NCBI GenBank assembly: GCA_973895155.1
Contig: OZ316891.1
Span: 10,851,875-10,915,874 of the forward strand
Source: Marsupella aquatica
Taxonomy: Eukaryota > Plantae > Marchantiophyta
Length of the DNA: 64,000 nucleotides
Reading direction: 5' to 3'
Position 1 is the first letter of the stretch. Every line of letters begins with the position of its first letter. The notes under the pieces are model-generated. The model saw nothing but the letters and a program-made list of their open reading frames with translations. It was not told the DNA's origin and ran no database searches. Positions 5,307 to 54,361 of the stretch are shown in pieces. The position numbers and the translations under genes are program-made.

Positions 5307-7464
5307 TCAAGACAGAGTAACTGTAAGGGCTGGTGTTTGTTTTGGTGTTTGTTTTGTTGGCGAAATTGTCCCAAATTCCTTCTCCATTTTTTGCACAGAA
5401 TTTTAAGGATATTTTGTGTTGGATTAGCCAATTTTCCACTCTGCATTATACAGATTCTGAAGGCTCTTCTTGAACCTAGGGAAGATAGATCGTTCTCATC
5501 AGTTTGAAGGAGGAACGTTGTTAGCGTCTAGTTTTGACATGAGGAAGCATTTGCCATCCTGGAAAATAAATTAAACAATCTTTGAATTTATGGTGCGTGG
5601 CACTGCCTCATGCTTGCTAAGGAATCTTTGGTATTGGCATTTACTAGATGGTGTTTCTGCTGCGGAATCTTTTTGGTGTTAAAAGTAAGTTGTAGCATGT
5701 TATCAGATAGTGATTTTGCTGCAAAATCTTTCGGTATTGATGTTTGCAAGATCTTGGTTGTTGACATTAGTGGGGTTTATAAGCGTTCTGATGGAGCCTT
5801 GGTTTTCCTCCAGTGAGGCTTCAGTTTGGTGTTCGTGACACTTTATTTTCCTCTTGTCCAGGTTCTGGCCTTTGTGGTTTAGTGTACCCCTGGTTTTGGT
5901 GTCCTCCAGACTTGATGGGGTTTCCCCAGACTGGACTTGTATTCAGTTGCAGGGCTGCTTGTCTAGGGAGGGGTCTAGGAAGGGGTTCATCAGTCTAGCC
6001 CCAAACAAACCAATAAAGGTGTGAAACTGGAGAATTCCCCATGGAGTTGGGTTGGTGAATAGTTTAGATGCACAACACTTCCTTCCTTCCATTTGTACAC
6101 AGGACAAACAACAGGTGACCCAAGGGAAGAGATGAGGGTGCCTTAGTTAGAGTAACACCAAGCCTCGATCCCCACCCCCCACTGATATAATGTAGATGAT
6201 AAGGTATAAGTAAGGTATAACATTTGGATATGAGGTTTACAAGTTGGTACAAGCTTAGGTGTGATTACCGAGGTGTAATAGTGTTTGGATAGAGGACTTA
6301 CTTCATAGCGTACCTCCAGGGCAAACATCAAATTCACAGATGAGGCTCCCGTTTCCACCCTGCTTTGCTGGTTCTCAAATACAATTATCATTGTCTGCCG
6401 ATAGAAAGTGGGATACATGAATTGCTTGACCTAATTGAGTTGTGAGCTACTCCCTCAGACCTTAATTACTAAAGGGATCAGAGTCATGTACCAGCTGGAA
6501 TGGGATGGGTGATTATAGACACAAGGGAAGAAAGGAGATGAGATCTTGTAAGGTGAAGTTTGAGTAGGACCCTCCATAAGTGTTCAGGGTTTGGCTTCTT
6601 TGTAAAACCTTAAAAAAAACCCTGCCTGGTTTAATTAATTTCTTAAGTGCAACATCATACATTATCAGAAACTGCAAACACTTGTTGATCAGATTACGGG
6701 ATAAGGTTTATGCATATATGATGAGATAAGTGTACTGTATACCCTTGTAGGGCGATTTTCCTTGATACTTTTGTGAGTAGTGAAGCCTCTATCTACCTGA
6801 TAAAACAAGATTGAAAGCTGCAAGGATAAATGCCACAGTTTAAAGTGAAACCTCTCAGGGGGCATAGTTGAACTGGCTAAGGGCACGAGACACTCACTAT
6901 TTGTGTATGAGCAAAACTTGGGCATTCAGGCTAATCAACCAATTCATTAAAAGTGGAAAATTATCAATGCTTTGGAATATTGCTTATCTCTATTTAGAAT
7001 ATTATAAAACCAAAATTGGAATTTAAATACCCAATTTTTGGAATTTCTTTACACACATTTTTGAATTTTTTTCATGATTTGTAATATTTGTTTATGAATA
7101 TATCAAAGTCAAAATACCTAGAAGTATTTACAATCCATGAACCTTGTATCATCCAAGACATTCTAAAGTGAAGTCAATTTTTTGGGGGAAAAGGGGGGGC
7201 ACAAAGCCTCAATACCACACAAAGAGAAGTCATTGACAAACGTAATATATATTTCATATTATTTTTAATAAATAAAATCCAAAATTGAAATGACGTAAGT
7301 ACCCTAATTACCTTGCCTAATCAATTTTAGACTCAGTGCCAAGCAGGCAAAACATAAGAGTAGATTACCAACCTAGAAAATAAGTCATCCTTATACTTTT
7401 GATAGACTTATCAACTAACTAAATCTATATAATCCTACTAAACAAATGATATCACTCTCAATAT

Positions 7465-9552
7465 CTACCTTTGCTCTTCTATATCAATCCTTGCTAAATA
7501 AACTTTGATTTCCTCCAGTTTCTTTTTGGGGATTCGAATGCCTTGTTCAGCTTTTTCCCCTTGATATGTCCAAAAGTGCATGGCTGCTGTTGCGTTACAC
7601 CATTCTTCTTTCTGCAAAATATCACATTCCCAAAGTTTTTGCTTCTTCAAACATCCTTCATATCGATCATACAATGATCTATCCTTTTTGGTGCTTTTGG
7701 GTCTCCACCATTGCAACAGAAAATCTCCACAATTTGGTAGTTCATGGTCCATTTGAACTTTGCTCAATGCTCTTCCCATCCAGAAGCATCCTGGCTTGTT
7801 ATCCTCAAATTCTTGTGTTGGACGAATAATGATGAAAACGCTTGCTTCAATATCTTCAAGAGGAACAAACCGATTGCTTTCCCTTTCAGAAAGAGGACCC
7901 ACAAATATTGTTTGACCTTCAAGCATTTCCTCATCAGCCTCACGTTGAAGGATAACAATATCTGGAGGATTCTCCCAACCCGTCACATCAAATGATCCAA
8001 GATCACTTTTATAGCCTGTACCATGTTTGGTTCGAGGCCAAAACCCATCCACCAGCGGTTGCTCTTCAATATCCACTATCTCCAAAAGGGGCTTTTGCAA
8101 AAGCTCAGTAACTGTCTTCCAATATTGCACTAAAGGAAACCTTTCCTTATATCCCTGCGAGGTCTTATCCTTCCATGTTTTCTCTATCCACTCTATATAG
8201 TTTTTGATGTAGGCTGAAACATCTTTGGCTTTCTGAAAAAGTGTAGTTGGGGTTTTGGCAAGTGGTTCTCCAATTGGAAGGACAAGTGTTTTACTTCCAT
8301 CTTCAACCCATATGCATCGTCCTTGGGGTGGTGACCATGAGTCATTGATATTCTCCTTGACTTGGTACATAGGGACATTATTTTTCATTGTAAATAGGAA
8401 TGCCATTGGTGCAGAGTGCCCTGCAATAGTCTTCACAAAAGCACTAACATAAGACTTGTAGCTAGCCACTTCTTGGATCAATGTGGGCACTGGGTGAATT
8501 GCTTCGCTTTCCCATACCTCTGCCATAAGTGAAAGTAGGGTTGTGACCTCACGATGCTTAAGTCGAGTGCTTACCCTAGAGAATATTGCATCAACATCCT
8601 CATGTGTATGCCTAACCATAAGGAAAGACATGACAATACTCTCAAAGTGTCCCCTCAGAACCAACTCACTACAGAATGCCATCATGGCCCAATTCTTGTT
8701 GTCCTTTGCAGAGTTGTCCATTTGTAAGTGTAGATGTCTTGGCAATTTCTTGAACAGTGTAGTGCTACTACTCTGACATTCTGTCAATCCACTTGCCACA
8801 ATTGGTGAGACACAATCCTTGTCCACAAGTTCCCCACGATATCGATCAGTTGTGACATTGTTGGCATCTAGATATCCAATTTGACAAGCTTGCTTTTCCA
8901 ATAATGCCTTGAATAAGGGGTTTGTTGCCTGATGAGAATGAACTCCAAGATCTCCACTTTTATCCCCCAAATATGCTTCCAATCACGCAGGCACTTTGCA
9001 ACGAAGGTAATAGTAAAATCCAGATTAGATGGCCACATCCCTGTCAAACTAAAGTGGGCAAAGACTCCAGGTTCCCGACCATGTGTCAACATCCCAGTCA
9101 AAGCCATTAGTAGTGGTTGACATCCACTAGCCATGCTTTTTAGTGTATCAACCATTTTAGGAATTTGGGTCTTGTTTTGATCCATCTTATCATGAATAAT
9201 GCAAAGAAGATCTTCTGGATTTCTTCTTGCCATCACCCGAGCTGCATATGAAAGGTTTTGACAAGACATTTGTTCTTGCATGTGTTTTTCCCTTGCTACT
9301 TCGTACCGCTTGCGAACTTCAGTTCTTCTCTCCTTCATCAACAACTCCTTCAAAGTGGTGCATTGAGTGCACTTTGCAAAAGCACTCTTCACATGGAATG
9401 AAAAATTTGCATAGTTCTCCCTCCACATCTTATAGAAAGACCCAATGGTAATTCCCTGACTCCCTTCCACCTTCATGCTCTCAACTACCTCATCATAGAT
9501 AGCATCTTTGTTATAGCAAGATGGTAATCTGTAGATGATGTTTGATGTTCCC
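7465..9552 (-). pseudogene. DDE transposase, C-terminal half (DUF7869/Sola1-like), frameshifted near 8980
   Basis: Motifs FAKCTQC...H, IIHDKMDQNK (D1), HLQMDNSAKDNKN (D2) and FLMV[G>R]HTHEDVDAIFS (D3). Two overlapping ORFs (8868-9584, 7465-8982) are joined by a frameshift. The C-terminal FWMGRA...LLQWWRP region is possibly SH3/Tudor-like. Confidence 0.8.
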
Positions 9553-9950
9553 TGTGTATTTGAGATGTGGCATAGGCTCGCCAAGGGTATTCACTACACG
9601 GTCAAGATGAGCACGAAACTCTTGTGTTATCATCCTTCGGGAGCTCAAAACCTACTAAGTTCGGCTTTGAGAGGTGTGAGAGGCCGGATCGACTCTCCTT
9701 CCTTATATCCGGATTCGACTGTGGTCGTGCCTGTGTTTGACTTATGGTTTTAAAAACTTTGGCAATGGACAGCTGTTGTTGAGTAGAGTCTCGGTATAAG
9801 CTTTATATCTCATTCCAGGCTTATAACAAAAAGTTCCGGGTTGATCCTCCTTCTCTAATATCAATCCGGGTTGACCTCAGATCAGCTTGAAAGTCTCATA
9901 ACACTTCAAAGTAGTCTTTAGGTCCCTCTTCAGCATTATTTAAGATCTTA
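9553..9950. mobile_element. Retroelement/LTR-like fragment at the left transposase breakpoint (right end approximate)
   Basis: Transposase homology stops abruptly at a TG at 9553. GC-richer non-coding sequence follows, with CCGGGTTGA motifs whose reverse complement resembles GGTCGACCCGG motifs at 16-16.3 kb. Confidence 0.35.
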
Positions 9951-10259
9951 AACGTAAAATTCTAAAATTTATGGTTAGTTAACCATTCTTTTATAAACAT
10001 CCTTATCTCACACTATTTCCACATACTCAAAAGATTTAACAATCACAATAATTTTACTTCAAGGGTCCAAACTTCTCATTCATTTAGACTTGAAGGGGGA
10101 ATAATTCCTTTGTATTAAATACTCATATGCAATGGAGTGCTTGCTACAAATGGAGGTAACAAAGTTGCAATCTTGCAACTGAGCGCTCATGAAATTTCTT
10201 CACACAAAAAGTGGCAAAAACTCTATTGCATATAGGCTAACAGAAACTAAGAGGCTTTA

Positions 10260-10587
10260 CACCGTGCCAGGAAACAGGAAAATGATTTCCTATTATGAGC
10301 AAAATTTACTGTTATCAGCAAAAATGAGATATAAAAAATTTCTCATTAAAACTCAAAATTTTCAAAATATTTTTAAAAACGATCATTTTTGGCTAGCGCC
10401 AGGCGCTACTATTACTAGCTTGGGCGCTAGTAAAAAAATATCAAAAATTTAAACCAAAAAAAAAAATTTCCAAAAGAAAAAAAATTCACAAAAAATTTCA
10501 AAAAAATTTCAAAAAAATTTCAAAAATTCTCATCCATTTTGCTGTTTACTATTTATTGTTTCCTATTTCCTGTTTCCTGGCACGATG
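10260..10587. mobile_element. MITE with 22-bp TIRs
   Basis: CACCGTGCCAGGAAACAGGAAA at 10260 pairs with TTTCCTGTTTCCTGGCACGATG ending at 10587 (21/22). The interior is AT-rich. No clear TSD. Confidence 0.7.
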
Positions 10588-11646
10588 GTTATACCCGAAA
10601 CTAAAGGGGAAAAGAGATAATGAAAGGACATGCCCTTTCATATCTTAAAGGTCATAAACTAAAGTAAAAAGTATGAAAATATGTTATAAGAGTACTCAAG
10701 GTTCACTAGAATGTTGCTGAAATGAAAAACTAACCAAAAGTTATCCCTAGTGTAAACTGAAGTAAAAGTGTTTTTTGTACTTTTGTGGTAAAACTAATAA
10801 ATAGTGAGTTTATCAAAATTTTAATTTCTAACATTAAAGTCAAAATGAGATGAAACTTTACTAGGTGGAATATTTATATACATGCTTCATGCTGCGACTT
10901 TTCTGAGGTGTCTAAGTGCCTTAATAAAATCGATGAAAAGTGCTGTCGGATAAAAAATACACTATTCCGGAAAATTTTCTAAGTGTCGGAAACGCCGTTG
11001 CGCCTTTGCGCACTCACGCTTAAGCAAAACTAAAAATGCTATAATTTCTAAACGACATGTCGGTTTTGGCCGATACTTTCAGGGTATGGTTCGCTACATA
11101 AGGGCTATCTCCTGAAAAAGTATGAGACTTTTCTAACTACTTTAACTATTTAACTAAAACTGCAGAGATCGACTGATCTTAACTATTGTCGTGGGAGAAC
11201 TAATCTTGTTGGAGTAGTGTTGTCTGATCTGGTTGCTGAACTCTTGTGTAGGTATTCTCTTGCATAGCTTCTTGAATTACATCCATGTCTTGAGTGTGAT
11301 GCCGATGAAAGGTAAAGACTTTCGCTGTCGTTCAATATTCAGAACAGGAAGTAGTCTCCGGTGTAGCATGACATTAGGTAAAGTGTTTAGTTGATCTAAA
11401 TTGCTACAAAAAGTAACTATAATGCACCTTTGAGTTAGAAAAAATTCAAAATTTATAATTTTTCTATCATTTCTAACTAATGTACTATATTACATCCCTC
11501 ATGTACGATGTACACAATTCTGAGGAATGAGTGTAGAGAATTTTGAGTTTAAATAGATATGTGAGCATGAACAAGGAGAAGTCTTGCGGCTGATCCCTCA
11601 TAGGGGCCTGCCAGCAGTACTAGGGCGTGCCAGCAGTAGCGCCTGC

Positions 11647-11764
11647 CAGCCTTTCACCTTCCACTAAAAATGCCCTGCATGCGCTCTTGCTACGGTTGTC
11701 CTCACAGCCTTTCACCTTCCACTAAAAACGCCCTGCATGCGCTCTTGCTACGGATGTCTTCACA
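11647..11764. repeat. Two-copy tandem repeat, 58-bp unit
   Basis: CAGCCTTTCACCTTCCACTAAAAAYGCCCTGCATGCGCTCTTGCTACGG occurs at 11647 and 11705. Confidence 0.85.
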
Positions 11765-14001
11765 CTACAAATCATCCTCTTCTTACCAACTAGGGCCTCA
11801 ATAAACGAGTTTTCAGGGCCTCAACAAATGACAGAGTTTTCTTTGGTGAAGTACCCCTGACAACTTCCCAATGGAGCTTCCGCCAACTCTAGCCGCTTTC
11901 TCTTCTTCACACGGAGCTGACACCTAGTAAGTCACATGACACCTTATATGGCATGCATCTATATATGGCTAATTATTTGGTACCAACTATTTGGTACCAA
12001 ATCCTAACAAGTCTAATGTAACGGTGTCAAATTTACATTCGTCTTTGGCCAAAAAGTTAAATCCATATTTTGGGGCCTCTAAAAAAATATTGAGAGATTT
12101 ACACTTGACCATGGCAAAAAAAGGCCAACTCCAACTACTCCACTAAAATCAAGTAATGTCCAAGAAGTTGGTGAAGTTGGTGAGGTCAATGGGCCAACAA
12201 GCGTTGCTAAAAGGAGAAAAAGTACTAAGAAACGGATGGCGGCTTGTTATTGCAAGACAACAAGCCAAAATACTTAGCCACAAGGAAAACCTGAAAATTT
12301 TCAAATTTCAAAAACACAAAAATTCTGACTACAAGGTTCCTCATCGTGCAAATACACTAGTCTGTACAATAATGGAGGAAAAATCACAAAATGTCCCTCA
12401 GTCATCATATTTTAAAAAATTAATATGTGTTGAGCAAATGTCGTTTACTTGGAGTCTATTAATGCGAGCTAGTCGACGAATCCCTCCAAAACTGGGTCAA
12501 TGAGTGGAAAATTAAAAAAACAGAATGAATAGTAACAATTTTTGAAACTCCCGTTTGATTCCATGTAAATACAGAGCTCTACAGTATATAGGAGGACAAA
12601 TCCAGCATGCAAAAGCAAAAGGTATGTCGCCATTTTTTAAATATTAAAAATGTGCTAAGCAACTTTGTTTTTTCTTCATTCTTATTGATAAAAGCTGACA
12701 ATTCCCTCCAAACCTGGGGCCAATGAGTCTTCGCCAATAAACTCAAACTCAGCAACATTAGTCAATCCATCTCACGCTGATCCGTTGCTCTCAAAGATAT
12801 ATTTGCAAACCCAGCCCAACACTTCCACATGTTCATTGTACTTCAGTTTTAGAGTTGTTTATTTTTCTTTATGCTACTCACACTTTTGCATTCTCTATTT
12901 GTGCCCACTCTTCTACAACTATTTTCTGAGGGAAGTCTAAGCATTTTCCTTCATTTAACCAATGAAAAGACCCTCCTCCTACTCCAACTCTCTTAGATCA
13001 TGGTGGACAATGCTGACACTGCAGTTGAGTCTGAACTGACGTTTGATGAACATTTGGGCGTCTTCTAATTGATGAGGACGCATGGTGGCACTCTTATACT
13101 CTATCTTCACCACATGCGGCAAAGACATTTATGATTCTGAATTTTGGGTATGTTTCTTTTACTTTGTTTAAGTTGTTTGTGAGTCTTTAGCTTTATTTTT
13201 GTCTTGTGCACTAAAAGTAACTAATTATGACCATCAATTTGCAACTTGGCCAAGCTCAATATGACATAGGTCTACATATGTTTTGTTTTGTTCATTGAGA
13301 TATAGAGGCATAAATTGTCATCCTCAAGATCATCTTGAGGTTGTAAGTTTTCCTGTGTGTGTCCATCATTCATATGAAGGTTACATGGACTAAACTATTA
13401 ATATCAATATTAAGAGAAAATAGTGAATGAATCATTTTTTAATGGTTTGTAAGACTTGATTTCTCTCAACCTCATGAGATTTTTCCCAATACAAGCCTTT
13501 AAGTCCATAGGTACTTCATTTTTGTTCTCATTCATTTATTCATAATTCAGTCTTCTTGAAGCAAGAAATGAAACCTCACGACAATCGTGAAGTTCTACTG
13601 TACTTTATTTTATGACCAATAATTCTCATTCTTTTGGGTTAAATTGAATCTCTTAGTAGGTCTCGTGAATGTATTGCTGCAAACATATTGTAGTCTAACA
13701 TTCTGTCAGTCCACATCCGTGTAATTACTTGCGGACCTTCTAGACCACTATTATTTCTAACATTATTGCCTTATACCTACATAATGGACTTTTTAATGCA
13801 AAGTTGACCCAACTATGCATGTTAAGCACTTGCATGGGACCATATTAAGTTTAACCACAAAAACTAGGTTTAGTGCCTAGATGAATTTCACTTTAGTATC
13901 CAAGTAGCCTGAAACCTCACGATGATATTGAGGTTTCTTCTGGACCCTGACAACCTGTCATCTTCAACTGATGAGTAATTTTCTTAACATTTTTTAATGC
14001 A

Positions 14002-15830
14002 GATCATGACTACAACTCGGAGTGCCAATTTTTTGTTCTCCCAAGGGTCTGAAGTACTTCTTCATCTTGAGAATATATTGGTTGCAAGGGGGGTTGTGTT
14101 TAAGACCAATCCAGAAGACACTTGTCATTCTGAGGCATTGTGTAACAACCGCATGAGTGTTCTGGTGGTTGAAATCTTTGAGCCAACAAAACCTCTTCCT
14201 TACCCAAATCCAGGAGCTGACACCACTGGGGAGGCTTTGCGTTCATATGTTATATGGGACTGTGCTAGTGCCATTTTGGCAAATGAGAACATCCCATTGC
14301 AGGTCCAAAAAGCATCCAATGATACTCCCAACCTTGTGAGACTTGAAAGAACTGATGATTCAAGGATTGTTGGAAACCAAGTCCCCAATTCCAACAATGA
14401 ACCGGTTGCACCATTTTGTTCAGGAGATGATGTGCTATTGCAACTTACAAGCATTATTGTTGCACGGGGTGAAGTTTCTAATACTCAACCAGAGGATACT
14501 TGTGGTGACATATTATTGGGATCAGGGCATATTAGTGTCCATGTGGTTGAAGCACTTCATGGGGTGACTCAATTGCCATACCATAACACTAACATAAAGA
14601 CAATTGAGCAGTCTGTAGGTAGTGTTGTCTCGGGGGGTTAACTAAGTGTATATTTTGGGGTACCACCTGTGATCCTAGCTTAATATAAATAGACCTATTT
14701 TATAAAGAAAATATTCCAAGAATATTCTCTATTTTCAATATTAATAACCTATTTTACTTTATAAAGGGTATATATTAAAGAATATTCTATAAACATGAGT
14801 TTATAATACCTTCTTTTGCCTCCTACGCTTTTTAAAAATTTAGTTAAAATCTGTCAAAAATACCTATTTTGGATTGCACGTGGTTCCTAAGATTTTTGAT
14901 AGTCAACCCCCCGAGAGTGTTGTTCTTTGGGATATAGTCAATGTATATCATGTTGGCGAGCAATTCAATGGGTGTGAATCGATTGAGATTCAAAATGGCG
15001 GACTCAGCCAAGGACCACATGACAACTACGATTTGAATGATCGTTCCAAGTGGTACCTAAAAGATGTGGAGATTTATACTGTTGATCGGGTGACATTGCT
15101 TGCAAGAGGATCAATCACAGCATGGCAACCCACAACAGCAATAAACAATGAAGTGCTTGGTGATGGTCATGTTGGGGTGCTAGTTGAACGTGTGATTTGC
15201 AATATCCACATGCAACAGAAGGAATTTCCCACATTTTTAGTGGGAACCCCGTGCTTGGTAAAATGGCCGGTTGCAACTTTGAAATTCTATCCTTCTGACA
15301 AGTTTCTTGGAGATCTTCTGTCAGAACTTGAGGATGAACAGACTGTACATAAAGAGGGGGATAATGATGAGGATGATTTGTTCTCTTCTATGGAGTACCA
15401 GCAAAAGAAAAGACATTATTCAATGGGCGGGTTGAGAAAACCAGCCAACCCAAATGCACGCCAAAAAAAGAGTGGAGCAGAGAAGAAGTGTGAAGGTGGA
15501 TGAGAACAAAATAGCTCAAGTGGGCATGAAGAAGTGCAAGTGTGGAATGGAATGTTGTCGGAACTTCCCCCGCACAGACATTGAAGAGGTCAGAACTGAG
15601 TTCTATGGTTTGGACAATGATAACAAAATCAGTCATATGATGAATGTTTTTGAAATGAGGGAGAGATCTATGGTTGAGCAAGGACAAATGGTTGTCAAAG
15701 GTTGCATCATTTGCAAAATGGCATTTGCAATTATATTTGGAATTTCTACAAGCACCTTCTACAACTATGAGAATCTATACAAGGGTGGTTGTAAAGTGGG
15801 GTTTCATGGCAATAAGGGCACCAAAAAACC
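14002..15830 (+). pseudogene. Transposase N-terminal half: three tandem Tnp1/En-Spm-like (DUF8039-type) domains plus a Cys-rich region
   Basis: Three ~80-aa repeats with the pattern VARGxV...PxD...LG.G...V.V...LP...W, then KCKCGMECC and ICKMAFAIIFGISTSTFYNY...HGNKGTKKP, which in this family precede the YRLP/CxxC/DDE part found at 7465-9552. Interrupted by a MITE and a frameshift near 15490. Confidence 0.7.
14629..14915. mobile_element. MITE, CTCGGGGGG...CCCCCCGAG termini, 8-bp TSD AGTGTTGT
   Basis: TSD at 14621-14628 and 14916-14923. Removing the element plus one TSD copy restores the frame (EQSVGSVV|LWDIVNV). Confidence 0.9.
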
Positions 15831-15834
15831 AACG

Positions 15835-18800
15835 CGCATTAGGCTGTTTAAGCAGTAGAGTGAGGAGGCTCTACCCTTTTGGTAGAGGATCTTGGGTCCG
15901 GATTATAGGACCAATCTTGCATTGCATGATGAGAGCCTGGATATGAGGGTACTAACTGATTCGTTGTGAGGGGAATGCCTACTCCACCGCTGGAAGTGAA
16001 GGCAGGAAGTTTGAGATCCTGATCGTGAATACATTGGTTGTGAGAAGGGAGGCCAGGTCGACCCGGACATCACCATTGCAGGCCCGATTGAGTCCAGATT
16101 TTCCCCACGTTAGATGACCCTGCATTGTGGTTGACGAAATCTTAATGCAATTCTTCCGAAATGATTTTCAATTGATCAGAAACGCTCCGGCCAGGTCGAC
16201 CCGGACTTTTCCGACCCGGCCTTCGTCGACCCGGCTGAATTTCCGGATGCACCCGGCCATGCCTCCCTAGACACCCTAGCTGATTTCCAGATCATCTCAG
16301 ACACATTCGAGAAGGTGAAGAGGAAGACCACTGTGATGGAGAAGGCCATCACTGACATTTCTCAGAAATTAGGAGTGAAACCAGGGCAGATTCTTGAGAA
16401 GATCTCCACCATGAGTGATGCCACAGATAAGAGGAAGTTAGAGAAGGAGAATGAGTTCCTCAAGAAGAAGGTATCTGAACTCAAACAGCAGTTGGAAAGG
16501 AGTAAGAAGAAGAATGAGCTTGAGCATACTCTCCAACTCAGTATCACTCAATCTTTGGATCTGATTGAGCCTTTGACTAAGATAGCTTCTCTGGATCTTC
16601 TTAAGGCCCAAATTTATAATGAGTATTTGGCCAAGAACACTACACCCATCCTTTTCTCCAAGATTAACCATTTAGTGGTAGATGTGAGTACCAAGGTGGA
16701 TGATGCATTTACAGGTCTCTCAAAGACCTGTGAAGCCTTAAGGGAGATGAGTGACTTAACTACTGAGGAGCTATTAGCTGATACTGAGATTCCTCCCTTT
16801 ACTACCAGATCTTTCTCTCCTAGTCCTCATGAAGGAGTCTATTCCACTGGCCCCTTATCACCCCTCAACCCTCCTGGTTTCCCCACTCCCAGTACACACT
16901 TCCACTCCCATTCTTACACTTATTCTCATGACCCAAGTGCCCATCAGGAGAACATGGATATTGACCCGTCCATCCCTTTTACCACTGGTCAGCAGGGAGT
17001 TTTCCTTCGACCAGAACCCCTTGCCATGGCTAACCCTGAGGAGGTTCCTTCCCAAAAACTAGGACCAGAATAGAGTTATATTTAGAGAGTTAGAGCCACA
17101 TTAGTTTAGACTTAGAAATATCTATATAGATTAGTATATGAGTAAGTAGACTCCAGTATTTTGTTGATGTATTCATTGGAGACTCTACTCCATTTTTGAC
17201 TAGGATAGTTCACTTTTATTTACATATTTCTTTAGACTTGGGTTTTGAAGAGGCATGTCTTTTCATAATCTCCACTTTTAGTACAAAAGGAGGAGAATCC
17301 AAAGTCAACCAGGAGAGAGAAAATATACATTTGATTTCCTCATTACCTTTGAAGGAATCTATGTCTTTTCTTCCCTTTCTTTTTACCATGGTTGAGTAAA
17401 AGAAAAAAGTTTTAGCAACCCTTGAGTTGTTGTGAAGTGTTCAATGAATGCTAGAGTGTGCCTTAATGATATTGAAAGATCAATGAGATTTGTGATCAAT
17501 ACATTTGGAAGATTCACCAAAGAGGAAATTGACATTTGCACAAAACTCAAACAAGCAATCTTAAGGATTGTAGGAGAAGTAAGCCAATTCGAGTATCCGA
17601 GTACCGTCTTAAGCAAGACCAGAAAAGTGTCTCGGGTTGATTTACATTGTTGTCTTCTAAATTCAAGAGATGGAGAAGAGTTGCTACGAGAAATAAAAAA
17701 GCATAGAAAATGTTAATTTCTGAATCTTAAATTAGGCCATAATCCTTATTGAAGGAGTGGTGATGGTCAGAAATTCAATTCCCTTGCACTTTGAAAACTC
17801 CTATCTACTCTCTCTCTAGTTTCAATCTTTGTTAATTCTAGTCTTTATTATTGCACTATGAATCCTAGGGATTATCCACTTGAGTTTGTGGTTAAACACT
17901 TATGTTAAGGAGATCATTAGAAATCTCTCCAACCTAAGAATGTTGGTGTAAACTTCTCAAATTGTGTTAATTCAGTCTTTTTGATCTTATCCACTCCTAA
18001 CCGGAACGAAATCGAGTTGTTAAGGAGTAAATAGTCATTTATCTCTTTATCACCTTGCTACAAATAGATTCCTTGTTGGTGATGTTTCACATATTCCTTA
18101 GTTCTTGATGCATAGTTTTTGGCGTGACATTGCTTGTGCATGGGATGCAAAGATTGTTACTTACCAATTACTTATGGCTTCAAATTTGATTATGATGGTG
18201 TCTCTTATTTGTGACACAAAGTACCGATTGGATACAGAAGTGATTGATTACTAGTCTCCACTCAATACCTTGGAAGGAAAAGTTGAGACATGTTGACGGC
18301 ATTTTAGTAATCATCCTAGTACCGTAATCCTTTCCAAAAATGTTTTTGCGGATATACCACCTAAATCATATCAAATGAAGTTATGTTGAGGAGTCACCTT
18401 GGTTGTTTCCTAACTCCCTCACCATACCTCAAGGTTTTCATTGTGTTTTATTAATTGTTTCCATTTGTTAATTTTATTTTTAATGTCAAGCAGACATTTA
18501 AAACTATGCCTTGCTGAGCAACCATAGTAAAAGGCTCAACTTTGTGTTTTTGTTACCTTATTCATTCATAAGTGCTAAATCATAGAAAATCATTCCTTAC
18601 ATGTTCTTCCATGGGAACCAATACCGAGTTTTGGATCTTAAATGTTTATTTATGTCTCTAGTGTGATACTACAAGGGAGGACTATTCAAGTTAGCTACAG
18701 TACCTCTGTCATAACTGTCTGCACAATCACCAAGGTACCGATAGTCAGTGTTTATGTGGAATAGTGGAGTAGATTCCTGTTGTACTAGAGGTGCCTATTC

Positions 18801-19231
18801 ATTAGTGTTTCCTGTATTGCTGGTAGCTACATGTGCCAATCATTGCACAGGCTAGACAATCCCTCTACTATACGTATGACTGGTGAAGGAGGTGCGTATC
18901 TCATTGTCCTTATCTTATCTTGGTTTGGTATCTGATTATCTTCTTTCTCAATTGTACGTGAGCTAATGGGTGTGATGAGTCTCCTTACGGGCTCAATGCG
19001 CTTTCTCATTTGTATTTGATGAGTTTTGTGACCGGTTCAATACGCATGTGCGCTTATTATCAGAGTATGCTCTGAGGAGATTGAGTTGCATTGTATTGTT
19101 TAGGGTTGCTAAATTAGAAACGATGAGTTTCGTGACCGGTTCAATACGCATGCGCGCTTATTATCAGAGTATGCTCTGAGGAGATTGAGTTGCATTGTAT
19201 TGTTTAGGGTTTGAGTTGCTAAATTAGAAAC
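15835..19231. mobile_element. Nested retrotransposon-like insertion with a coiled-coil accessory ORF (16315-17073); boundaries approximate
   Basis: Abruptly ends the transposase N-half. Contains a 252-aa coiled-coil/Pro-rich ORF resembling extra ORFs of LTR elements, purine tracts (AAAAGGAGGAGAA, AAGGGAGG) and UTR/LTR-like sequence. No RT or integrase motif is seen. Confidence 0.4.
19018..19231. repeat. Two-copy tandem repeat, ~104-bp unit
   Basis: GATGAGTTT..TGACCGGTTCAATACGCATG..GCTAAATTAGAAAC occurs at 19018 and 19122. Confidence 0.85.
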
Positions 19232-19460
19232 TTTGATTGAGTTTTGGTATACCAGAACGAGCAAGTTTACAGTATCTACAAAGAATCTTTTAAGATTCTT
19301 TGATAGGCGCACGGCTTTGGCATGGCTAAGCCCAAGAAGGATCTGGTAATGATGACAAAGCAAGCACATGTTGGGCTTCCAGGTACTTTTCATTTTCCAA
19401 CCTTGCTACTTTTGTTATTTTGGCATGTATTTTTTGACATTCTCATATTTTTTGTTTGTT

Positions 19461-20075
19461 AACCTCACGATCGTCGTGAGGTTTGACTATTCCAATGCTT
19501 GATTAAAGTTAGAATTTCAAATTTTTTTACTTGTTAACCTCATGATCATCGTGAGGTTTCTACATTTTCTTGCTTGACTAACTAAGATGAGGAAAGTCAT
19601 TTCTACTTGCCTAACCTCATGATCATCGTGAGGTGAAGGGTCATCATTTCATGGCTTCATGAGAGCTAGGGTGAAGGACATTTTTTCTTTTCAACCTCAC
19701 AATGGTGATGATCAAGGTTTCAAATTTTCATGCATGGATAGAGAATAGTAACATCTTTTTTCTGTGGATCACCTTAAGATATTTGTGAGGATTAGGGTCT
19801 TTTTTATGGTTTGGCTATAGGTTCAAGGATATTTTTGCTTAGAAAATCTCACTATCATTGTGAAGTTTAGCCATATTTTCATGGTTTGGTGAGAGGTCAA
19901 GGAGAGTGTCAAGAATATTTTTGTTGGCAGCTAACCACACAATTATTGTTTCATTTCATATTTATTTGCATGGTTTGGTTCAAGGGTAGAGCTCATGTTT
20001 TGTCATTTTTATGCTTCCATAGAAATTGTCAAGTTCTATTTTGCTTGCCAAAACCTCACGATTGTCGTGAGGTTT
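19461..20075. repeat. Intronic array of ~23-bp palindromes (AACCTCACGATnATCGTGAGGTT), ~75-80-bp period
   Basis: Copies at 19461, 19536, 19613, 19693, 19771, 19845, 19933 (degenerate) and 20051. The spacers are much more divergent than the palindromes. Confidence 0.85.
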
Positions 20076-20162
20076 GCTCATTTCTGCATCATTCCACCTA
20101 GTTTATTCTCAAGAATTGGATCTATTCATTTAATTAATGGACTTCACTTGTTTATTGTGCAG

Positions 20163-23100
20163 ATGATTACCATGATTTGGACCCAGTATCTACACCAAAA
20201 ATTTATGATAATGATGTATGTTTAACATACAGCTATGACATTGGAGAAGAGTGGGCAATTGATATGTACCCTTATGATGGAGAAGTTCAGTTGTGTTTGA
20301 TTGACATAAAAAAAGATCCACACCAATTGCGACAGCACATTATTGGTCCAATTGCATACTTGCAAATGCATTCTTAGGATCAAGTAACTGTTCTTGTAGA
20401 GAATTACACGGAAAAAAAATGGTATCAGTACTTGCTTGATGCAAATACATATGGAGTGCGGTTGAATACAACTTGGATTGATGATATGCCAACCAATGTT
20501 ATTTCTTTGGCATTCTTTCCTTTGGACTTTAGTTTCAAAGGTAGTTCAGATCAAGGACAACTTTCACACCAGGAGATTGCATCTGGTTATGCTCGAGTCT
20601 TACATTTGCTGAAAAGAAAAGCATTTCTTGTGTAGGACATTGCAGATGGAGCAGTGCATTGAGACAAGTGGACTAACCAACATTGATATTGATCCAGCTG
20701 TTCTTTTCCATAAGACATTTGGAAAAGAAACACTCTCCAAATGGATTGACTTGCAAACTTTGGTTGCAAACAAGGTGAAGAAAGTGCCAAAGTCTTTAGA
20801 AGATGACTTGGGAGTAGATATGTCAGAATATGAAGGGACCAAGGCTGACGAAGAAGCGGTACCAATCATTGATCCCAATAGAGAGGCATCTCCACAACAA
20901 AGTGAGAAGCTTGATAGTGTAGAGCCTCAAATTCATAGCATTCTTGGAATTGTCCAACAAAAGAAGAAACAAGCTACCAAGCTTGTAGTTTCTCAGCCAA
21001 AGAGACGACCGCCAACCACCAAGGCACAAAATGTGCAGAGGAAGAGAAAGCAGCCACAAGAAGAGGACAATGTGGAAGAGATTTTTGCACAACAAAGTGA
21101 AAGGATTGAGCCCATTGTACTTCAAATAGGAGGCAATGTATAGAGCAAGCCAACAATTGTGCAACCAAAGAGAAAGCCATCAACAAGAAAGAAATCATTG
21201 GGGAAGCAACCAGATAGCAATAGGGATACAGTTGCTGATCTTGTGCCACAAGGAGCACTAATCTTACGAGAAGTGGGTGACAATGAAGAGAGTGAGTTAC
21301 CTGGAGCCAAAGAGATTGAAAAATCTAGCAAGATTTTGCAAGAGGTGAAAGATTACTATCCTTTTGGAATTAGAACACATTTTGGGATTCCGGTGAAGAA
21401 TATCATGCAACCTCCTGCTACCATGTGTTATAGGAAAATCAACCTTTCTCATGTTGATGAGATAATGACTGGGATGATCTTGCATCCTGAGCAGCAACCT
21501 CATCCTGCTGATTTAGTTCCCTACAACCCTCAGACCTTGAAGCCAATGAGTTTTGCAAAAGATGACATGACTCAATTTCAGAAATTGATGCCAAGGTTAA
21601 AGTTCTTTGCTATAAGTGGACAGCACTCTGCACTTGCCGCTCAAAGAATCTGTGAGCATGCCAAAAAACAACCTGATCTTCGAGAGCTTGCAAATAAATT
21701 GCAAGTACGTTCATCTCACATTTTTAGTGGAGCTACACCAAAAAAGATCTTGCTGGAGTTCTCTAGTAGCTCAAATGAGATGAACAAGATTTCTGATTAT
21801 AAATCTCCATTCATTGATACTGTGGAGCATGCAAGAAATCAGTACGCTGATTTTGGTTTTCCAAAATGACCTGAGGCGGGACAAACAGCAAGTCCAATTT
21901 ACAAGGTAAGTTTGCCTTGCATAAAAGGTTTAAGTTTGTTGTACTGTGTTATTTTCTGAATCATGAATGCAATGCCTAAGTAACAACCTCACAATGATCA
22001 TGAGGTCAACTACTCATATTGAAAAGATATAGTTTCTTTTGACATGTGCAGGAATTTGAGCATACAGCAAAAATGACCATGGAGAAGAAACATCTTACTG
22101 AAGTACATTGGATACTTTTTGCATTTGAGAAGTTGTATTGTTTGTGGAAGGAAGTGTGTAACAAGTGGCTTGAGGGAGAGCTTCCAGATGGACAAGGTAT
22201 CATCACTGAAAATAAAAAAGAGTCTAAACTTCTAACACCGGAGTTTGGAGGGAGGCTTGCAAGATGATGATATCATAGCCATTCTCAAAGAGGTCGAACA
22301 TGGTGGAGTTCTCCTTAAGAAAGATGCTTCTTACAAAGGTGACATGCAATCTATGGAAGAGCTTGCCAAAACAACAAAAGTTTTCTCCAAACTGAAAGAG
22401 ATAATTATTGGATATTATCAAATCACTTTTTCAGACCAGTTTCCTGATAAATGTACTTGGAAGGAACTATGTGATAAAATTCCCATTGATGCTAGGGAAT
22501 TGGATCGATGCAGAGGAGTGACTGGTACCAAGTACTTGATATCTTGTACTTCTCAGAATATTGCATGTGAGAAAAATATTCCGCATGGTTTAGTATCAAG
22601 ACTAAATCAACTATTTTATGATGCGTTCGGTGGAAGCCAGAGAAAGAGATTAGAGCCATTTCTAACTTTTTTCACTGACAACTTAATGACAACATGTGAG
22701 CCTGGTGCTTTGGAAGAGGCAGCTCCTTTTGTTCCTCTTGCCATTGTGGATTTTGGAAAACAAAACCAAAAGGAGTGGTCAGTATCCCAGCTGGAGGTGT
22801 TTTTTAAGTACATTGTGGAAACACCAAAAAATGATGCAATAATGATTGTCATTTTTTTATTCCATGGTCATCTTTACTCCAATGTGCTAATTGCACTTTA
22901 CAATTTGCCCGATATTCACTTACATTTTGAATTTGGATCATTTGAGAGAGCCGATGGCTACATACATCCTGGGAGGTTTTTTAAAAATGAGCGAGAACAA
23001 ATAATTATTGCAGGTATGTAAATTTGAAATTTGTGTTTGGGTTTATGATACATTGAGAAAACCTCACAATGATCATGAGGTTTAGAATTATCACTAATTG

Positions 23101-26015
23101 TAGAATCTAAATTTATTTGAACTTAGTAAGTTTACTGATCATTTAGTGTCTTTTGGCAGCCGTTTCACACAGTGCAAAACAAGATTGGGTTGACATGTTG
23201 CCTGAAGGAGATATGAACTACCAATTTGATGAGAAAAATGATCGAGATTACCTTTCCAAAACTTGGACGACTAATCCAAAATCTATTCCAGTGGATGAGT
23301 CTAAAGAAGATCGAGAGGAACGCTTGAGGGAAGAAGCATTCAAGACGCTAAAAAATAGAGCTCCTCGTTATTCATTTTTGGATCAACTTGGAGGTTTAGT
23401 TAATCCTAATTGCAAGCCTGCTCGTGTGCTCAACAACATCATTCATAAATTTTCTACACGTGGCGCTACAATTTTTGATTTCTTTTCTGGAGGATCAATT
23501 TTAAAAAGTGCATTCGAGCTTGGAAGAGAATGCTTTGTGTATTCAGACTCAAAAAAAGAGTCTGAATTCCTGAAATTATATCCTAATATTTTGAGAACAA
23601 TTCTTGGAGTTAACAAATTTTGGGAGAAGGTTGGAAAGATCAATCGTGGTGATCCTCCTAAAGATTCAGAAGTTATTGTTGAGTATGCAATTATTGATGA
23701 TAATGACAAAGATGAAGATCTTTCTAGATTTGAGGAAGGGTCACCTGGTGTTGGTATTCCACGGGATAATCAACATCAAACTTTTGTTTTGATTGAAAAA
23801 ATCTTACAATCTTCAAGTTTGAAAAAATCTTCATCAACAATGAGAAGCCAAAATGATTTGATTAACCTTGCAAGTCCTTCACAGGTAAACATCTATTCTT
23901 CATTTTATTTGTAGTTTACTTATGAGGTATTTATATATATGTGAATATAATCTTATGTTGGAATTGTTGGGTCAAAATAGACCAATGCTTGCAGGAATGA
24001 AGAAATTACAAGTATTGTTGAAACTGAGACTATGGAGGTAGTCGAAATAGAGTCGGAGGATATCAAATTAGGCCAGGCAGGTTCTTCTCAAAATGAGAAT
24101 ACTGGAAATTAAATATTTTATGTACCAGGTAGCAACTTATATTAGATGATAATTTGAATTCAAACATGGATCATGCTTGCCATTCTCGGGGGGTTAACTA
24201 AGTGTATATTTTGGGGTACCATGTGTGATCCTAGCCTAATATAAATAGACTTATTTTATAAAAAAAATATTCCAAGAATATTCTCTATTTTCAGTATTAA
24301 TAACCTATTTTATTTTATAAAGGGTATATATTAAAGAATATTCTATAAATATGAGTTTATAATACCTTCTTTTGCCTCCTACGCTTTTTAAAAATTTAGT
24401 TAAAATCTGCCAAAAATACCTATTTTGGATCGCATGTGGTTCCTAAGATTTTTGATAGTCAACCCCGAGTTGTCATTTGAGAAACATGCTCATGTCCTTG
24501 AAAAGACAAGTATATATATATGTACTTTTTATTGACTTCAGATTTTTCACTGATGCTAACCTCATGATTATCGTGAGGTTTATGAGTGATATTTATACCC
24601 CAAATATGTACACAAAAAGCTTGTATTTAAAAATGTTAATACGATTGTTCCTTTGAATGATTGTATCAGCCAACTATCATAAGCATTTCTCACAATGAAA
24701 TGTCACCACTTGACAATTTACAAGAAGAAGTAGGACAAAATGATTCATATTCAGAAACAAGGGTACCTGGAATTGCATCTATTGAGTCACCCCTTTGGAG
24801 TGATTCATCATCTGAAGAAGGATTGCCTGCTGGAATATTTCCATTAGCACCAAAAGGTAAAGATTTTGTTATCTTTTATCTGTGTTCATATTTATATAAG
24901 ATTTTGAAATTAGTTGTTGTACATTTATTTTACAAAGTTCTAATTTATTTGTAATTGCATTTATAACAGGTCAACACGATCTTGATCCATGTCACGTTTG
25001 GTCTTACCTGCCAGAAAATATAGCTCGAGATCGTAAATTACTAATTTTTGATCTTAGTGGTTTATTTTTTCCATCGCAATATCTCGGAAAAACAATATGC
25101 ACCAAGTCAATATCAACGGCAACTGTGCACACATGGCGTGGTAACATGTGGACAATAAGACCACAAATTCATGAATTTTTGCAAAAGTGTTTCTCAAAGT
25201 TTGACATAGGAATATGGAGTTGTGAAACTGATCAAGAAGTCCAGATTCAAGTCAAGACTATCTTTGGACCCGAAGAAATTAAAAAATTTCTTTTTATCAA
25301 AAATCAACATCATGTTCAAGAAATTCTTGGGCTCAAGAATAGCAAAGGTGGACCTGTGTTTTTAAAGAACATATCAAAGTTCATTTGGGAAAAACATAGG
25401 TATTGGGATGACAAGACCACGGTGTTGATAGATGACTTACCTTATAGAACTTCAACAAATGCTTCTCATTCAGCGTTATTTCCACCTACATATGATGGAA
25501 ATCAAAAAGACAATTTTCTTTTGAAAATTTTATGGCCTTGTTTGGAAAAAATGAAAATGGTCTGTGATATCCGTGCATATCTTCAATTAAATGAGCCAAA
25601 ATGGTCCATGGAGAGTGCATCTCAAGATGAGATAATCAATGCTCATATCTATCTTCAGCTTCAAAGAAGAGGTCTTTTGAAAAAGTTTACACCGCCACAA
25701 ATAATCAAATACGCTAATGTTTTGCACATTTCTCAATACGAGATCAGCTGGGGCCAGAAGCACTTGGTCACAAATATGGGAGCTGTTGATAAAATGAGTT
25801 ATGAAGAGGTTTGCAAGATTGGAAAACATCTTGGAATGCGCGGTTGGCATACTGATCATGCTTATGATCCCATCCGGTTTTTGTCGTTGGTTCAAATAAC
25901 ACGAGATCTTTCTTCAAAATTTAAAAACTTGCGTACTCGAGATGGTTGTAATCGTGATAGAGAAGTAGATAAACAGGGAAAATTAGGAACATGCTCAAAT
26001 AAGCATTGTTCATAG
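20163..26015 (+). pseudogene. Multi-exon transposon accessory gene: ParB/Srx-like + N4/N6 DNA-methyltransferase-like + FCP1/NIF HAD phosphatase-like domains (decayed)
   Basis: GT-AG introns at ~21906-22051, 23014-23159, from 23885, and 24857-24969. ParB-like region: YRKINLSHVDEIM...FFAISGQHSALAA. MTase-like region: KPARVLNNIIHKFSTRGATIFDFFSGGSILKSAFELGRECF. NIF region: KLLIFDLSGLF, RPQIHEFLQKCFSKFDIGIWS, TVLIDDLPYR. In-frame stops at 20377, 21143 and 21869, and frameshifts near 20630 and 22250. Confidence 0.7.
24185..24469. mobile_element. MITE, second copy of the 14629-14915 family
   Basis: Highly similar to 14629-14915 throughout. TSD TTGCCATT / TTGTCATT (7/8). Confidence 0.9.
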
Positions 26016-28939
26016 TGTCCTTTAGTTCAATTTTCTTCAATCTTGGCCGAGCGCCATTAGATAGAGTAGACAAAGTTCAATGTGCAACTCAATTATATAT
26101 AAATATTTGGTTTCTTTAAAATTTCAAACTTTGTGATTCCCTTGAATGATCTATTTTGACCCTCATTTTGATCATGTAGTGAATAGTAGCACTATGTATT
26201 TGATTTTCAAACACAACTACGCAAGAATACTTGTTTATTTGAATAATGTTTTGAATATAGTAGTCACACTGATGGTTTTTTACTAAGATAGTAAACAATA
26301 AATTAAACTTGTACCTACATCCCAACATGGCTGAATTTGTGAAGAATCACAAGCACATCTATCAAATTTGATAACATTTTTGGAATTTTGTTAAATCAAT
26401 TTTGGAAATTTAAATAACATTTTTTGGAATTTCTTGACATTATTTTTGGAATATTCATTACATGTTTTGGAGAATTCAAATTCCAGTTTTAACGAATTGG
26501 TTGATGCTAGTGAAGAGGTGCAAAAGATTCAAAAGATTGGTGAAGGTTAAATTGGGAAGAAAATCTGTCATTGCAGTCACTACTTATAGAGTCTGCTCGA
26601 TCATATTTGTGGCCCTCTGTAGAAGGGCGGGGCACCACTCTATCCCGCACTCTGTCAGATCTAATAATGATATCAGGTTGGCTTAATCGGAAATTTAATA
26701 AAGAATAAAGGGTTATTGACGTGGAATCATTTCTGGAGGTTCCTGCTATTTCCATAATCTATTACCTAGAATGTATTGATCATAATTTTTTCTAGTACCG
26801 CATTTACATACTATAATGAAGGTCTGGGCTGGGGCCCTGGGGGTCTAGTCTGAACTTTGCTCTCATAACTCTCAGAAAAGCTTCCTGGCTATTGCTTGTC
26901 AATTTTTCTTCACTTTCTTGTCACAGGTTGCAGTCTAAAAACCTCAGCCCAAGCTATCATCATCCAAATATAATGTCATCATTCTCCCAGGACTTCAATA
27001 TTCTTAGTAGGGCAGAAGCAGTTGGTGTAGGGCCTATAAACACATCCCTTTTTGTATCTATACCAGGATTCTCAGGTTTCTGTCCCCCTGCAGGCCAGGG
27101 TTTTAGTTTGCTGCTGACTATGGGTTTAGTTCTTTTAATTGGGGATCTTTTTGGCTCTTTGATGGTCCAGTATTTTCCACTAAGTCGCCTTTTTTCCCCT
27201 TTGTCAATATAGGGTCCTCTACTCTTTGGGATCCACGTTTGTTGTTCACTAGCAGTGCTATACCTAGGTTCTATCAGGTTAGCCTGAAAAATCAATATTA
27301 TCAAAAGTTGCAGTCCCAAGACAATTTTGTATTTGTTATAAAACCCGGGAAATCATATAGATTTTTTTGCATTTTATGTAAAACAATGATGTATCAATGT
27401 TTAATAGTTTTAATTATCGGGGCTTACATGATATCAGTGTTTACACATCTGCATCATCAATGCTTAGGGCAGGACGGCTGTTAAGAAGCAGCTCTTTCTT
27501 TTAAGGCTTTGAGTCATAAACCTGAATTCTCCCTAATTTGTTGCAACTAGGTGTCACTGGGCCCACCTTTAGTGCCCCCCCTCATTGTCTTACTTAGATT
27601 TCACAAGTCATGGACTCAAGGGCAAGTTCTCCACTATTATGCCCTCACACTTGATGAGGAGGTTGAGACAGGTTAAAATTCTTGGTCAATATTTGATTAC
27701 CATCCCTTAAGGTAGTCCAGGCGATTCTTCACTTTTGGGGGCTTTCGGGTACTGCCATGCAAGCACCTTTAGTCACGATTTATATTTCATAATTGCGACA
27801 TACTTTCTACGATGTGCATGAGTTTGAATCTTGCATCCTGGACCAGGTGTTGAGCATTAGTCAGTGGATATGTCCATGTTGAAAATACCCAAAAAAATCC
27901 TTAACTTTAAGTCAAGGAAGATTGCTCATTCACTTACAAGATATTTTGCCTTCCATATATAGTCTCTCTGCATACGTGGAGAGATGATGGCCCTGGGGTG
28001 CTTTGATACTATTGGGAGGGGAATATTTTAATTTTTTTCTCTCCTTTTTCCTATTTCTACACTCCTATGCAACACCATTACTCCCTTTTTTTTCTTACAT
28101 TGGCACCATTAAATAAACAGAAAAATTGTACAAATAAATATAGAGAAGAAAAAGAAGCAGGAAATTGACCCATTTTCCTTCCTTCTAGAGTGTCATAGGC
28201 TCTGCAAAAATCCCAAAAAAAATTCATGCCCCAAAAGATTCTCCTTGTCTTCGTGTGTACTTTCATACTTGAAAAAAAACACATTTAAGATATGTCACAT
28301 AAGTATCTTCTCATACACAATGTGATCAGTATCATCTCCTAAACTTTGTATTCTACTATTAAAATGAGCATATCATTAGACATACCTGGTCAATCAATCC
28401 AAGAGTACAAAAAAATCTTTGAAAAAATATGATGGCTCAGATTTATTCCCACCATTTTTTAATTTGTAAGAAGCTGAAAGAGTTTTTTTGGCGGCATTAC
28501 ATATTATAGAAGTAAATTAAAACATGTTAAGATGCATATTATAGAAGTAGATTAGAACATTTTTAGCGGCGAAGTATTTACTTAAAGAGCTGAAAATTGG
28601 AGTGGCACATGTTAAATCAATGAGCAGCGGAAACGAAGGTCCGCGGCCTCATGCAATTAGCGTCCACCACACGGGAGGTTGCAGTTCCCGAACTTGCTAC
28701 GATGGACAGAAATAATAATAGAGCTTTACACGAGGGGGGTGAGGTGAGGCTTGATGAGGCTCGCTAGACATGAGCAAACAATTCGCGCACCGTGTGTAGA
28801 TGCTCTGTCCAATTGTTCTGCGGAGCTCGAAGAACCCTAGCGGAGCATCAGTATCAGGTCTCGACCTACATTTTGATTTCCGCTCGTCAGGCGCGAGGAG
28901 GGAGGCCGTCGGTAGGACGAGCGAGTTTGCGCAGATTGG

Positions 28940-48035: not shown

Positions 48036-48373
48036 CAAACATGGGTTAACTTAGGGGCAAGAGGCACAACTCCTGGAAGCAGGAGGAACGCCGCCAAGGT
48101 TGGGTGGGTGGGCGGGATGAAGGGGCCCTTATAGGATGTATCCTTGACGGATATTGGGCTCCTTCTAATATCCCATGTCTCTTGCGATGGTGTCCTCCAA
48201 CCGGCGTTCAACTTACTTAGGGTTTGTCAAGCTTGGAATGGGGCATGAAAATTTGAATGACTCATTTAAATTAGAATGACTAACAAAATATGTGCATTGG
48301 ATGCAGACAACGGACTATGGGCGGGAGCATGGAGTAATTAGGGCTTTCTTATGCTGAGGGTACCGTTGCCAAC

Positions 48374-53827: not shown

Positions 53828-54004
53828 ATCAATAAAGACCTCATCATGTGTATTCTCTTCAAAATATTGTATCAAGTGTGAATGTTATTCTTTCACTTTT
53901 GTATTTAACAGCATCTTTTACTTCATAATGTCTTTGACTAATGACATGTTTTACTTATTGACCATATTGTACTCACAACATTTTTATACTTAGCCAATTT
54001 TTTT

Positions 54005-54330
54005 CTCAACAACTTCTTGGGCAGCATAACATCTTTTCTCTCAACACCTCTTGGCCGGCACAACATCTTTTCTCACCACGACCTCTTGGCTGGCACAACA
54101 TCTTTTGTCTCCACGACCGCTTGGCTGGCATGACATCTTTTCTCTCCACGACCTCTTGGCTGGCACAACATCTTTTCTCTCCACGACCGCTTGGCCGACA
54201 CGACGTACATCTTTTCTCTCCACGACTTTTTGGCGGACACGACATCTTTTTTTCTCAACGACATCTTGGCCAACACATCTTTTTTTCTTAACGATATCTT
54301 GGCCGACATGACATCTTGGACGCCACGACT
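54005..54330. repeat. Helitron 3' minisatellite (~30-35-bp unit)
   Basis: ACGACCTCTTGGCTGGCACAACATCTTTTCTCTCC-like units, about 10 copies. Confidence 0.85.
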
Positions 54331-54361
54331 TCTTTTGTGCAACGCACGGGTATTGAGCTAG

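Follow-up and report, generated by a model that had tools for sequence, protein, structure and literature searches.

The window analysed here is a stretch of 64,000 nucleotides from the liverwort Marsupella aquatica (contig OZ316891.1, positions 10,851,875 to 10,915,874 of the forward strand), and all coordinates below count from its first letter. Between 6934 and 26505 it holds a Sola1-like DNA transposon that carries, besides its transposase gene, a second gene, here called the helper gene. The predicted product of the latter comprises a ParB/Srx-fold domain, a domain resembling beta-class amino-methyltransferases (methylase-like domain) and a NIF/FCP1-like HAD domain. As judged from aligned sequences, all three keep their fold and the core of the binding site and have lost a standard catalytic residue. 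The predicted exons are:

19322..19382, + strand: exon 1, with the ATG at 19322, placed by an in-frame GT-AG junction
20163..21905, + strand: exon 2, with an unnamed N-terminal domain, a low-complexity linker and the ParB/Srx-fold domain (21288-21866)
22052..23013, + strand: exon 3, with a helical region and the first half of the methylase-like domain, including motif IV LAIVDFG (22737)
23160..23884, + strand: exon 4, with the second half of the methylase-like domain and the S-adenosylmethionine (SAM)-binding block (NPNCKP...DFFSGG...GREC)
24670..24856, + strand: exon 5, a predicted low-complexity linker placed by in-frame junctions
24970..26015, + strand: last exon, with the NIF/FCP1-like HAD domain (approximately 25038-25574, motif I DLSGL), a helical region and a Cys-containing tail

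In this six-exon model of about 1,570 codons, all five introns are of the GT-AG type and an in-frame path joins the three domains; the exons are predicted to form one spliced transcript encoding a single protein of that length. From the helical region onward, the reading frame stays free of stops for 910 codons, up to the gene's end, and a metagenome relative (L001) has an intron at the same position behind the ParB exon, i. e., before exon 3. A preliminary description, made from the letters alone, had proposed a spliced three-domain gene of this kind within 20163-26015, and the motifs it quoted are all found on the + strand (YRKINLSH at 21429, FFAISGQHS at 21603, LAIVDFG at 22737, KPARVLNN at 23414, and DLSGL at 25050). 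The fusion stands insofar as the in-frame path and five Riccia gene models with joined methylase and NIF parts agree with it, whereas the gene probably starts upstream of the stretch described, at the ATG at 19322 with a small first exon, and the helper gene in the window is a pseudogene copy. It contains stops at 20375, 21141, and 21867 as well as frameshifts near 20618 (exon 2) and 22237 (exon 3); other copies of the element lack the stop at 20375 and both frameshifts, that is, three or more of these five defects. The Cys-rich tail noted earlier is present in the window copy, but only there among the sequences inspected by eye. The unnamed N-terminal domain (20189-20756) is conserved, with matches in the homologs P0003, P0051, and P0166 and none in Pfam.

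At E≤0.001, a profile search matched 232 family proteins; from the 150 listed, together with cluster members and earlier matches, a set of first 154 and then 167 proteins was analyzed. The sources of 30 of these proteins are 19 gene models of Riccia sorocarpa, one protein of Calypogeia fissa, and ten environmental or read assemblies. Calypogeia fissa provides the closest named relatives (63-74 % identity). Four of the 167 proteins, all from R. sorocarpa (P0138, P0147, P0153, and P0246), carry a sequence resembling the histone H3 tail (MARTKQTARK-like) at the N-terminus or at an internal Met; the predicted start in the window has no such sequence. Searches with narrow patterns found no relatives in viral contigs, prokaryote genomes, or phage records, and hence no donor is identified. 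Metagenome scans returned zero and one loci, the single contig being too short to show a transposase.

The ParB exon of the window, folded with a 46-sequence alignment, gave a model with a pLDDT (predicted local distance difference test) of 93.9. Foldseek ranked Noc, ParB, and PadC highest (probabilities 0.94-1.0, E-values of 5e-3 and up), together with sulfiredoxin and with no E-value below 0.001, and in an independent VIA structure search the first 11 rows all belonged to the ParB/Srx superfamily (best Z 8.2, root-mean-square deviation (rmsd) 3.1 over 99 residues). A Z of 8.2 is only middling and draws its weight from the uniformity of the hit list. The ParB/Srx fold, earlier proposed from motif likeness, is thus confirmed by the modelled structure. 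At the sequence level, Pfam, PHROGs, NCBIfam, PDB profiles, and hhalign to KorB were all blank for ParB, and Pfam DndB appeared on two of 49 family proteins (E 0.04). The GxxR motif (GARR in KorB) reads SGQHS: Gly and His are invariant (42/42) and Ser takes the place of Arg in 40 of 42 sequences. Within the family alignment of this domain, R279 is kept in 35 of 38 and N395 in 39 of 40. Among language-model clusters of the ESM Atlas, the best look-alike of the ParB exon is DUF3723 (score 0.95, with DUF3723 on 31 % of the cluster). Other clusters resembling the exon are unnamed, and mollusc proteins in one of them hint that related ParB-like domains may reside on animal elements.

For the methylase-like domain, Pfam N6_N4_Mtase matches the C-terminal block only (23147-23911, E 1e-5, 26.1 bits and therefore just below the cut-off of 26.7), while the family profile matches M.RsrI with an E-value of 4e-9. 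A model of the homolog P0002 (pLDDT 54) superimposes on M.MboIIA (1g60) with Z 15.8 and an rmsd of 4.0 over 189 residues; residues 169-448 of P0002 align to residues 1-256 of 1g60, with motif IV preceding motif I, and Foldseek returned 37 matches to beta-class enzymes at E≤0.001. The whole beta-class amino-methyltransferase fold is thereby confirmed on the modelled homolog, and the likeness recognized in the preliminary description extends beyond the SAM block. Within this block, DFFSGG is well kept (D 46, F 45, S 44, G 46, and G 45 of 49), as is the Lys of the KP motif (49/50).

Motif IV presents a different picture. In standard enzymes, known from work on M.RsrI and M.PvuII, both prolines and the aromatic residue of this motif position and stack the target base. 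The 40 aligned family members instead read D-F/L-x-R, with D in 37 and an acidic residue in 39, followed by F or L (38/40), a small residue, and R (27/40), and without proline. A low-threshold alignment to YhdJ places the family's D on the D of DPPY, and the pattern [DNS]PP[YFW] occurs in none of the 167 family proteins. Loss of motif IV, as read from these sequences, is a family-wide rule, and standard chemistry would not be possible in this lineage. What had been raised as a caveat for one copy, that the domains might be inactive, hence turns out to apply to the family, and the earlier suggestion of active DNA-modifying and phosphatase machinery is not borne out, since the DPPY-type motif is absent throughout (0/167) and the second HAD Asp is replaced wherever it was read (4/4, see below). 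An active but non-standard amino-methylase is an unlikely reading, in which D-F/L-x-R and the SAM pocket would methylate C or A, or attach another SAM-derived group to them, and so mark the element as self. The complete beta-class fold, the strong conservation of the SAM block and the KP Lys, and the acid of motif IV (39/40) are in its favor, and the authors describing an algal counterpart propose self-modification (PMC12477816). Both prolines and the aromatic residue are, however, gone throughout the family, motif I lacks one residue relative to M.RsrI and YhdJ, and the acidic residue closing the strand after motif I is variable (D 17/45).

The third domain is matched by Pfam NIF (PF03031) at 24900-26012 with an E-value of 1e-12, above the cut-off, and by UBLCP1 with an E-value of 7e-4, in line with the earlier assignment. 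The catalytic motif of FCP1/SCP phosphatases is DxDx(T/V). Motif I reads DLSGL in the window and DVEGL in all three Riccia models read, so that the first Asp is kept and the second replaced in four of four. Methylase and NIF parts occur in one predicted protein in five gene models, all automated and all from Riccia, and the NIF parts of three of these match the last exon of the window (E 1e-16 to 1e-22). ParB and methylase motif I share one chain in five proteins, two of which are single reading frames on short contigs. Alternatively, the NIF/FCP1-like exon could be separate, captured cargo, with the ParB-methylase protein ending earlier. This two-gene arrangement would be compatible with the other readings; P0004 and P0155 end without NIF, as do most long-tailed homologs, and the Riccia fusions are automated models. 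The in-frame GT-AG path, the 910 codons without a stop, and the same domain order in five Riccia models speak against it, and we regard it as quite unlikely.

Association with transposons, part of the original proposal, is seen beyond the window. Four of 20 Riccia family genes lie within two gene numbers of a gene for a DUF7869 transposase, the type found in the window element, as compared to 0.26 expected (p ~1e-4 under a global and a local null); the remaining 16 are 6-722 gene numbers away from the nearest of the at least 72 DUF7869 genes among the matches listed. The invariant motifs persist across family proteins that are 25-45 % identical. These observations bear on the notion that the helper gene is neutral, decaying cargo without a role for the element. 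The window copy, being a pseudogene on an element disrupted by an inversion, would fit; yet the retention of motifs at such divergence, the intactness of other copies at three or more of the five lesion sites, and linkage to a transposase in both a distant liverwort (Riccia) and a brown alga (Ectocarpus) render neutral cargo highly improbable.

The remaining features of the element are:

6930..6933, + strand: left target site duplication (TSD), GCTA
6934..6958, + strand: left terminal inverted repeat (TIR), 25 nt, starting with ATCAACCAATTC; a repeat contig starts at 6934 and a unique-flank contig stops at 6963
7468..9637, − strand: 3' portion of the transposase gene (DUF7869, Sola1-like DDE; Pfam PF25273, E 1e-36), containing a frameshift
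9638..11550 (right end approximate): first piece of an inserted high-copy repeat, depth >1000 as compared to 50-70 in the element
11550..15830, + strand: inverted segment carrying the 5' portion of this gene, with coding sequence from approximately 14006
14628..14910: miniature inverted-repeat transposable element (MITE), 283 bp, not in other copies
15831..19000 (right end approximate): second piece of the high-copy repeat
24184..24466: MITE, 283 bp, in intron 4, not in other copies
26481..26505, − strand: right TIR; a repeat contig stops at 26505
26506..26509, + strand: right TSD, GCTA

The ends of the predicted TIR element are borne out by public sequencing runs. In run X1, a repeat contig extends from 6934 to 26505, with a depth of about 50-70 inside and 12-14 on the unique flanks, and run X4 displays the same pattern of contig breaks and depth; contig depth is a rough guide here, and the runs used may include the window's own source. 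The TIRs of 25 nt are 92 % identical arm to arm, with GCTA duplicated on both sides. Several other copies, about 98 % identical, were seen as contigs in these runs. The element is a young multi-copy family of which the window copy is dead: its helper gene contains three stops and two frameshifts, its transposase gene is broken by an inversion, and it carries nested insertions. In other copies (runs X1 and X4), 15830 is joined to 9637 on opposite strands, making the transposase gene continuous, and the same inversion cuts one high-copy repeat into the two pieces given above. This repeat and both MITEs are later insertions; without them the element measures about 13.9 kb, its inner boundaries being approximate, and the transposase and helper genes are divergently oriented. 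The high-copy repeat contains a coiled-coil open reading frame of 302 codons (16165-17070) without a Pfam match above cut-off, and the 283-bp MITE, inserted twice into the window element, is of very high copy number in the runs. Elsewhere in the window, a Helitron occupies 48300-54700 (Helitron_like_N, E 8e-54, and Pif1 domains), with tandem repeats flanking both sides.

The transposase, with 79 homologs found, contains the motifs HDxMD, QxDN, and GHTH, which we take to be marks of Sola transposases. Riccia transposases match 14006-15876 in tblastn. The N-terminus (14006-15490) consists of repeated small domains with weak likeness to Transposase_23 (E 0.02-0.16) that are kept in the Riccia transposases. 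A CACTA end, considered on account of a minus-strand CACTA-like word (26509-26513) and the weak Transposase_23 matches, was rejected because the reads end the element at 26505 with a 4-bp duplication. The 4-bp TSD and the terminal inverted repeats are Sola1 traits, and with regard to termini and layout the element appears to fit a Sola1-like assignment, based partly on these motifs and on likeness to the algal element Sola1-1_Ec32. The target, seen at one site only, is GCTA and not the AWWT preferred by Sola1 (PMC3845634). A literature search for the term "DUF7869" found no paper.

A further feature of the element is a 23-bp palindrome, AACCTCACGAT-N-ATCGTGAGGTT, which is present in 11 copies as compared to 0.39 expected (0/100 shuffles):

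13320, 13572, and 13913 (13320..13935): three copies, upstream of the transposase coding region
19461, 19536, 19613, 19845, and 20052 (19461..20074): five copies, predicted intron 1
21985..22007: one copy, intron 2
23060..23082: one copy, intron 3
24558..24580: one copy, intron 4

All copies lie within the element and none in predicted exons, and four of the five predicted introns have at least one. Most deviations from the palindrome hit CpG, and the observed/expected ratio of CpG is 0.24-0.36 in most parts of the element as compared to 0.69 in host DNA. By eye, the palindrome was not seen in the intron of L001, the sole relative intron readable.

This distribution is relevant to the idea that the helper is a transposition helper akin to CACTA TnpA, which would bridge or compact the 14-kb element for TIR pairing and have no chromatin role. 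TIRs of only 25 bp would suit such a helper, ParB proteins bridge DNA, and DUF3723, the look-alike of the ParB domain, is carried by giant fungal Starship elements. The palindromes, however, are located in introns and upstream regions, at least 1.9 kb away from both ends, and the retained SAM pocket, the NIF domain, and the H3-like tails would be left unexplained. We consider this function improbable.

Tentatively, and with somewhat less than even confidence, we favor the helper as a self-binding, non-catalytic chromatin (anti-silencing) factor rather than a working methylase, which would keep the element transcribed and mobile. As in ParB proteins, the helical region that follows the ParB domain might let a dimer recognize the palindrome, and the methylase-like domain might hold SAM or S-adenosylhomocysteine and grip DNA without standard methylation. 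The FCP1-like domain could dock on RNA polymerase II in its phosphorylated form or on some other phosphoprotein, and the outcome would be local relief from host silencing, as achieved by VANC for VANDAL elements. The H3-tail-like N-termini of four Riccia models point in this direction. As standard chemistry appears not to be available in the lineage, the hypothesis of self-methylation shifts from a writer to a reader or shield. A more elaborate version, which we judge doubtful, is a eukaryotic counterpart of ParB-parS, in which a protein of three pseudo-enzyme domains would load as a dimer on the intronic palindromes and spread along the element, and the dead methylase pocket, the polymerase II dock, and, in some lineages, the H3 mimic would hold the element open.

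Several points weigh against a chromatin factor of this kind. The CpG depletion and the CpG changes in the palindromes imply that the element has been host-methylated, so that any protection is partial. The replacement of Arg by Ser in GxxR makes nucleotide gating of the ParB type doubtful, the helical region behind the ParB domain was modelled at low confidence and not identified as helix-turn-helix, and the transposase could equally bind the palindromes. All three domains occur together in none of the 167 proteins (most entries are fragments), NIF is present in only five of 167, and of the 25 proteins that extend farthest beyond motif I, 20 are without NIF. Furthermore, catalytically standard relatives may be missed, as the homologs were collected by means of a profile built from DF-type sequences and 150 of the 232 matches were used.

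Related designs are known from other transposons. VANC proteins bind repeated motifs in non-coding regions of VANDAL elements (PMC10398659) and offer a functional model only: like the helper, VANC is encoded by a second gene of a plant DNA transposon with repeated non-coding motifs, but the protein is unrelated, the elements are MULEs, and its function has been shown experimentally. DUF3723 (PF12520) of fungal Starships likewise rides large transposons and is the top look-alike of the ParB exon; the helper family has no Pfam match to it, and the resemblance is a lead only. MpDN4MT1 of Marchantia and the rotifer N4CMT are domesticated, active enzymes with TSPPY (10.1101/2021.02.12.428880). They share the eukaryotic beta-class amino-methylase fold (PDB 8s9m), whereas the helper family has no such motif and stays on transposons. 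The ParB-HTH (helix-turn-helix)-fused Dam-type enzymes of chlorophytes represent a different methylase group (PMC4738411), and a 2026 preprint on DAM domains concerns retrotransposons.

Closer parallels come from algae. Plavaka elements of Bostrychia encode PAG2 (N6-methylase and SET) and PAG3 (ParB and 2OG oxygenase), with inverted-repeat arrays beside the ParB genes (10.1101/2025.02.11.637652). Here too, ParB-like and PF01555 domains are cargo of a DNA transposon and the inverted-repeat arrays are proposed binding sites; unlike in the window, each of the two domains has its own gene and other partners, the elements are of the EnSpm/Plavaka type, and the repeats are in tandem. In Ectocarpus, Sola1-1_Ec32 carries a 1104-residue ParB and N4C/N6A methylase gene opposite the transposase, for which self-binding and self-modification were proposed (PMC12477816). 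This makes the liverwort gene less novel than had been assumed. Both elements are of the Sola1 type, with a 4-bp TSD ending in A, an accessory gene on the strand opposite the transposase that encodes a ParB-like and then a methylase domain, similar termini (AACCG there, ATCAACC here), and nested insertions. They differ in that the TIRs measure 282 bp there and 25 bp here, where the host is a land plant and the element about 14 kb long; compared by description, the liverwort family also has an extra FCP1-like domain, no standard catalytic motif, and dispersed intronic palindromes. In the openly searchable literature (Repbase reports, bioRxiv supplements, and subscription journals excluded), we found no account of the land-plant family, its catalytic-motif loss, or the FCP1-like fusion. 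The design is already published for algae, and the liverwort family is an extension of a known kind of transposon accessory gene. It shows that such a ParB-methylase gene also exists in liverworts. Because the element there is young and multi-copy, its ends are mapped, and a candidate binding site is defined, the idea becomes testable in a plant lineage with genetics.

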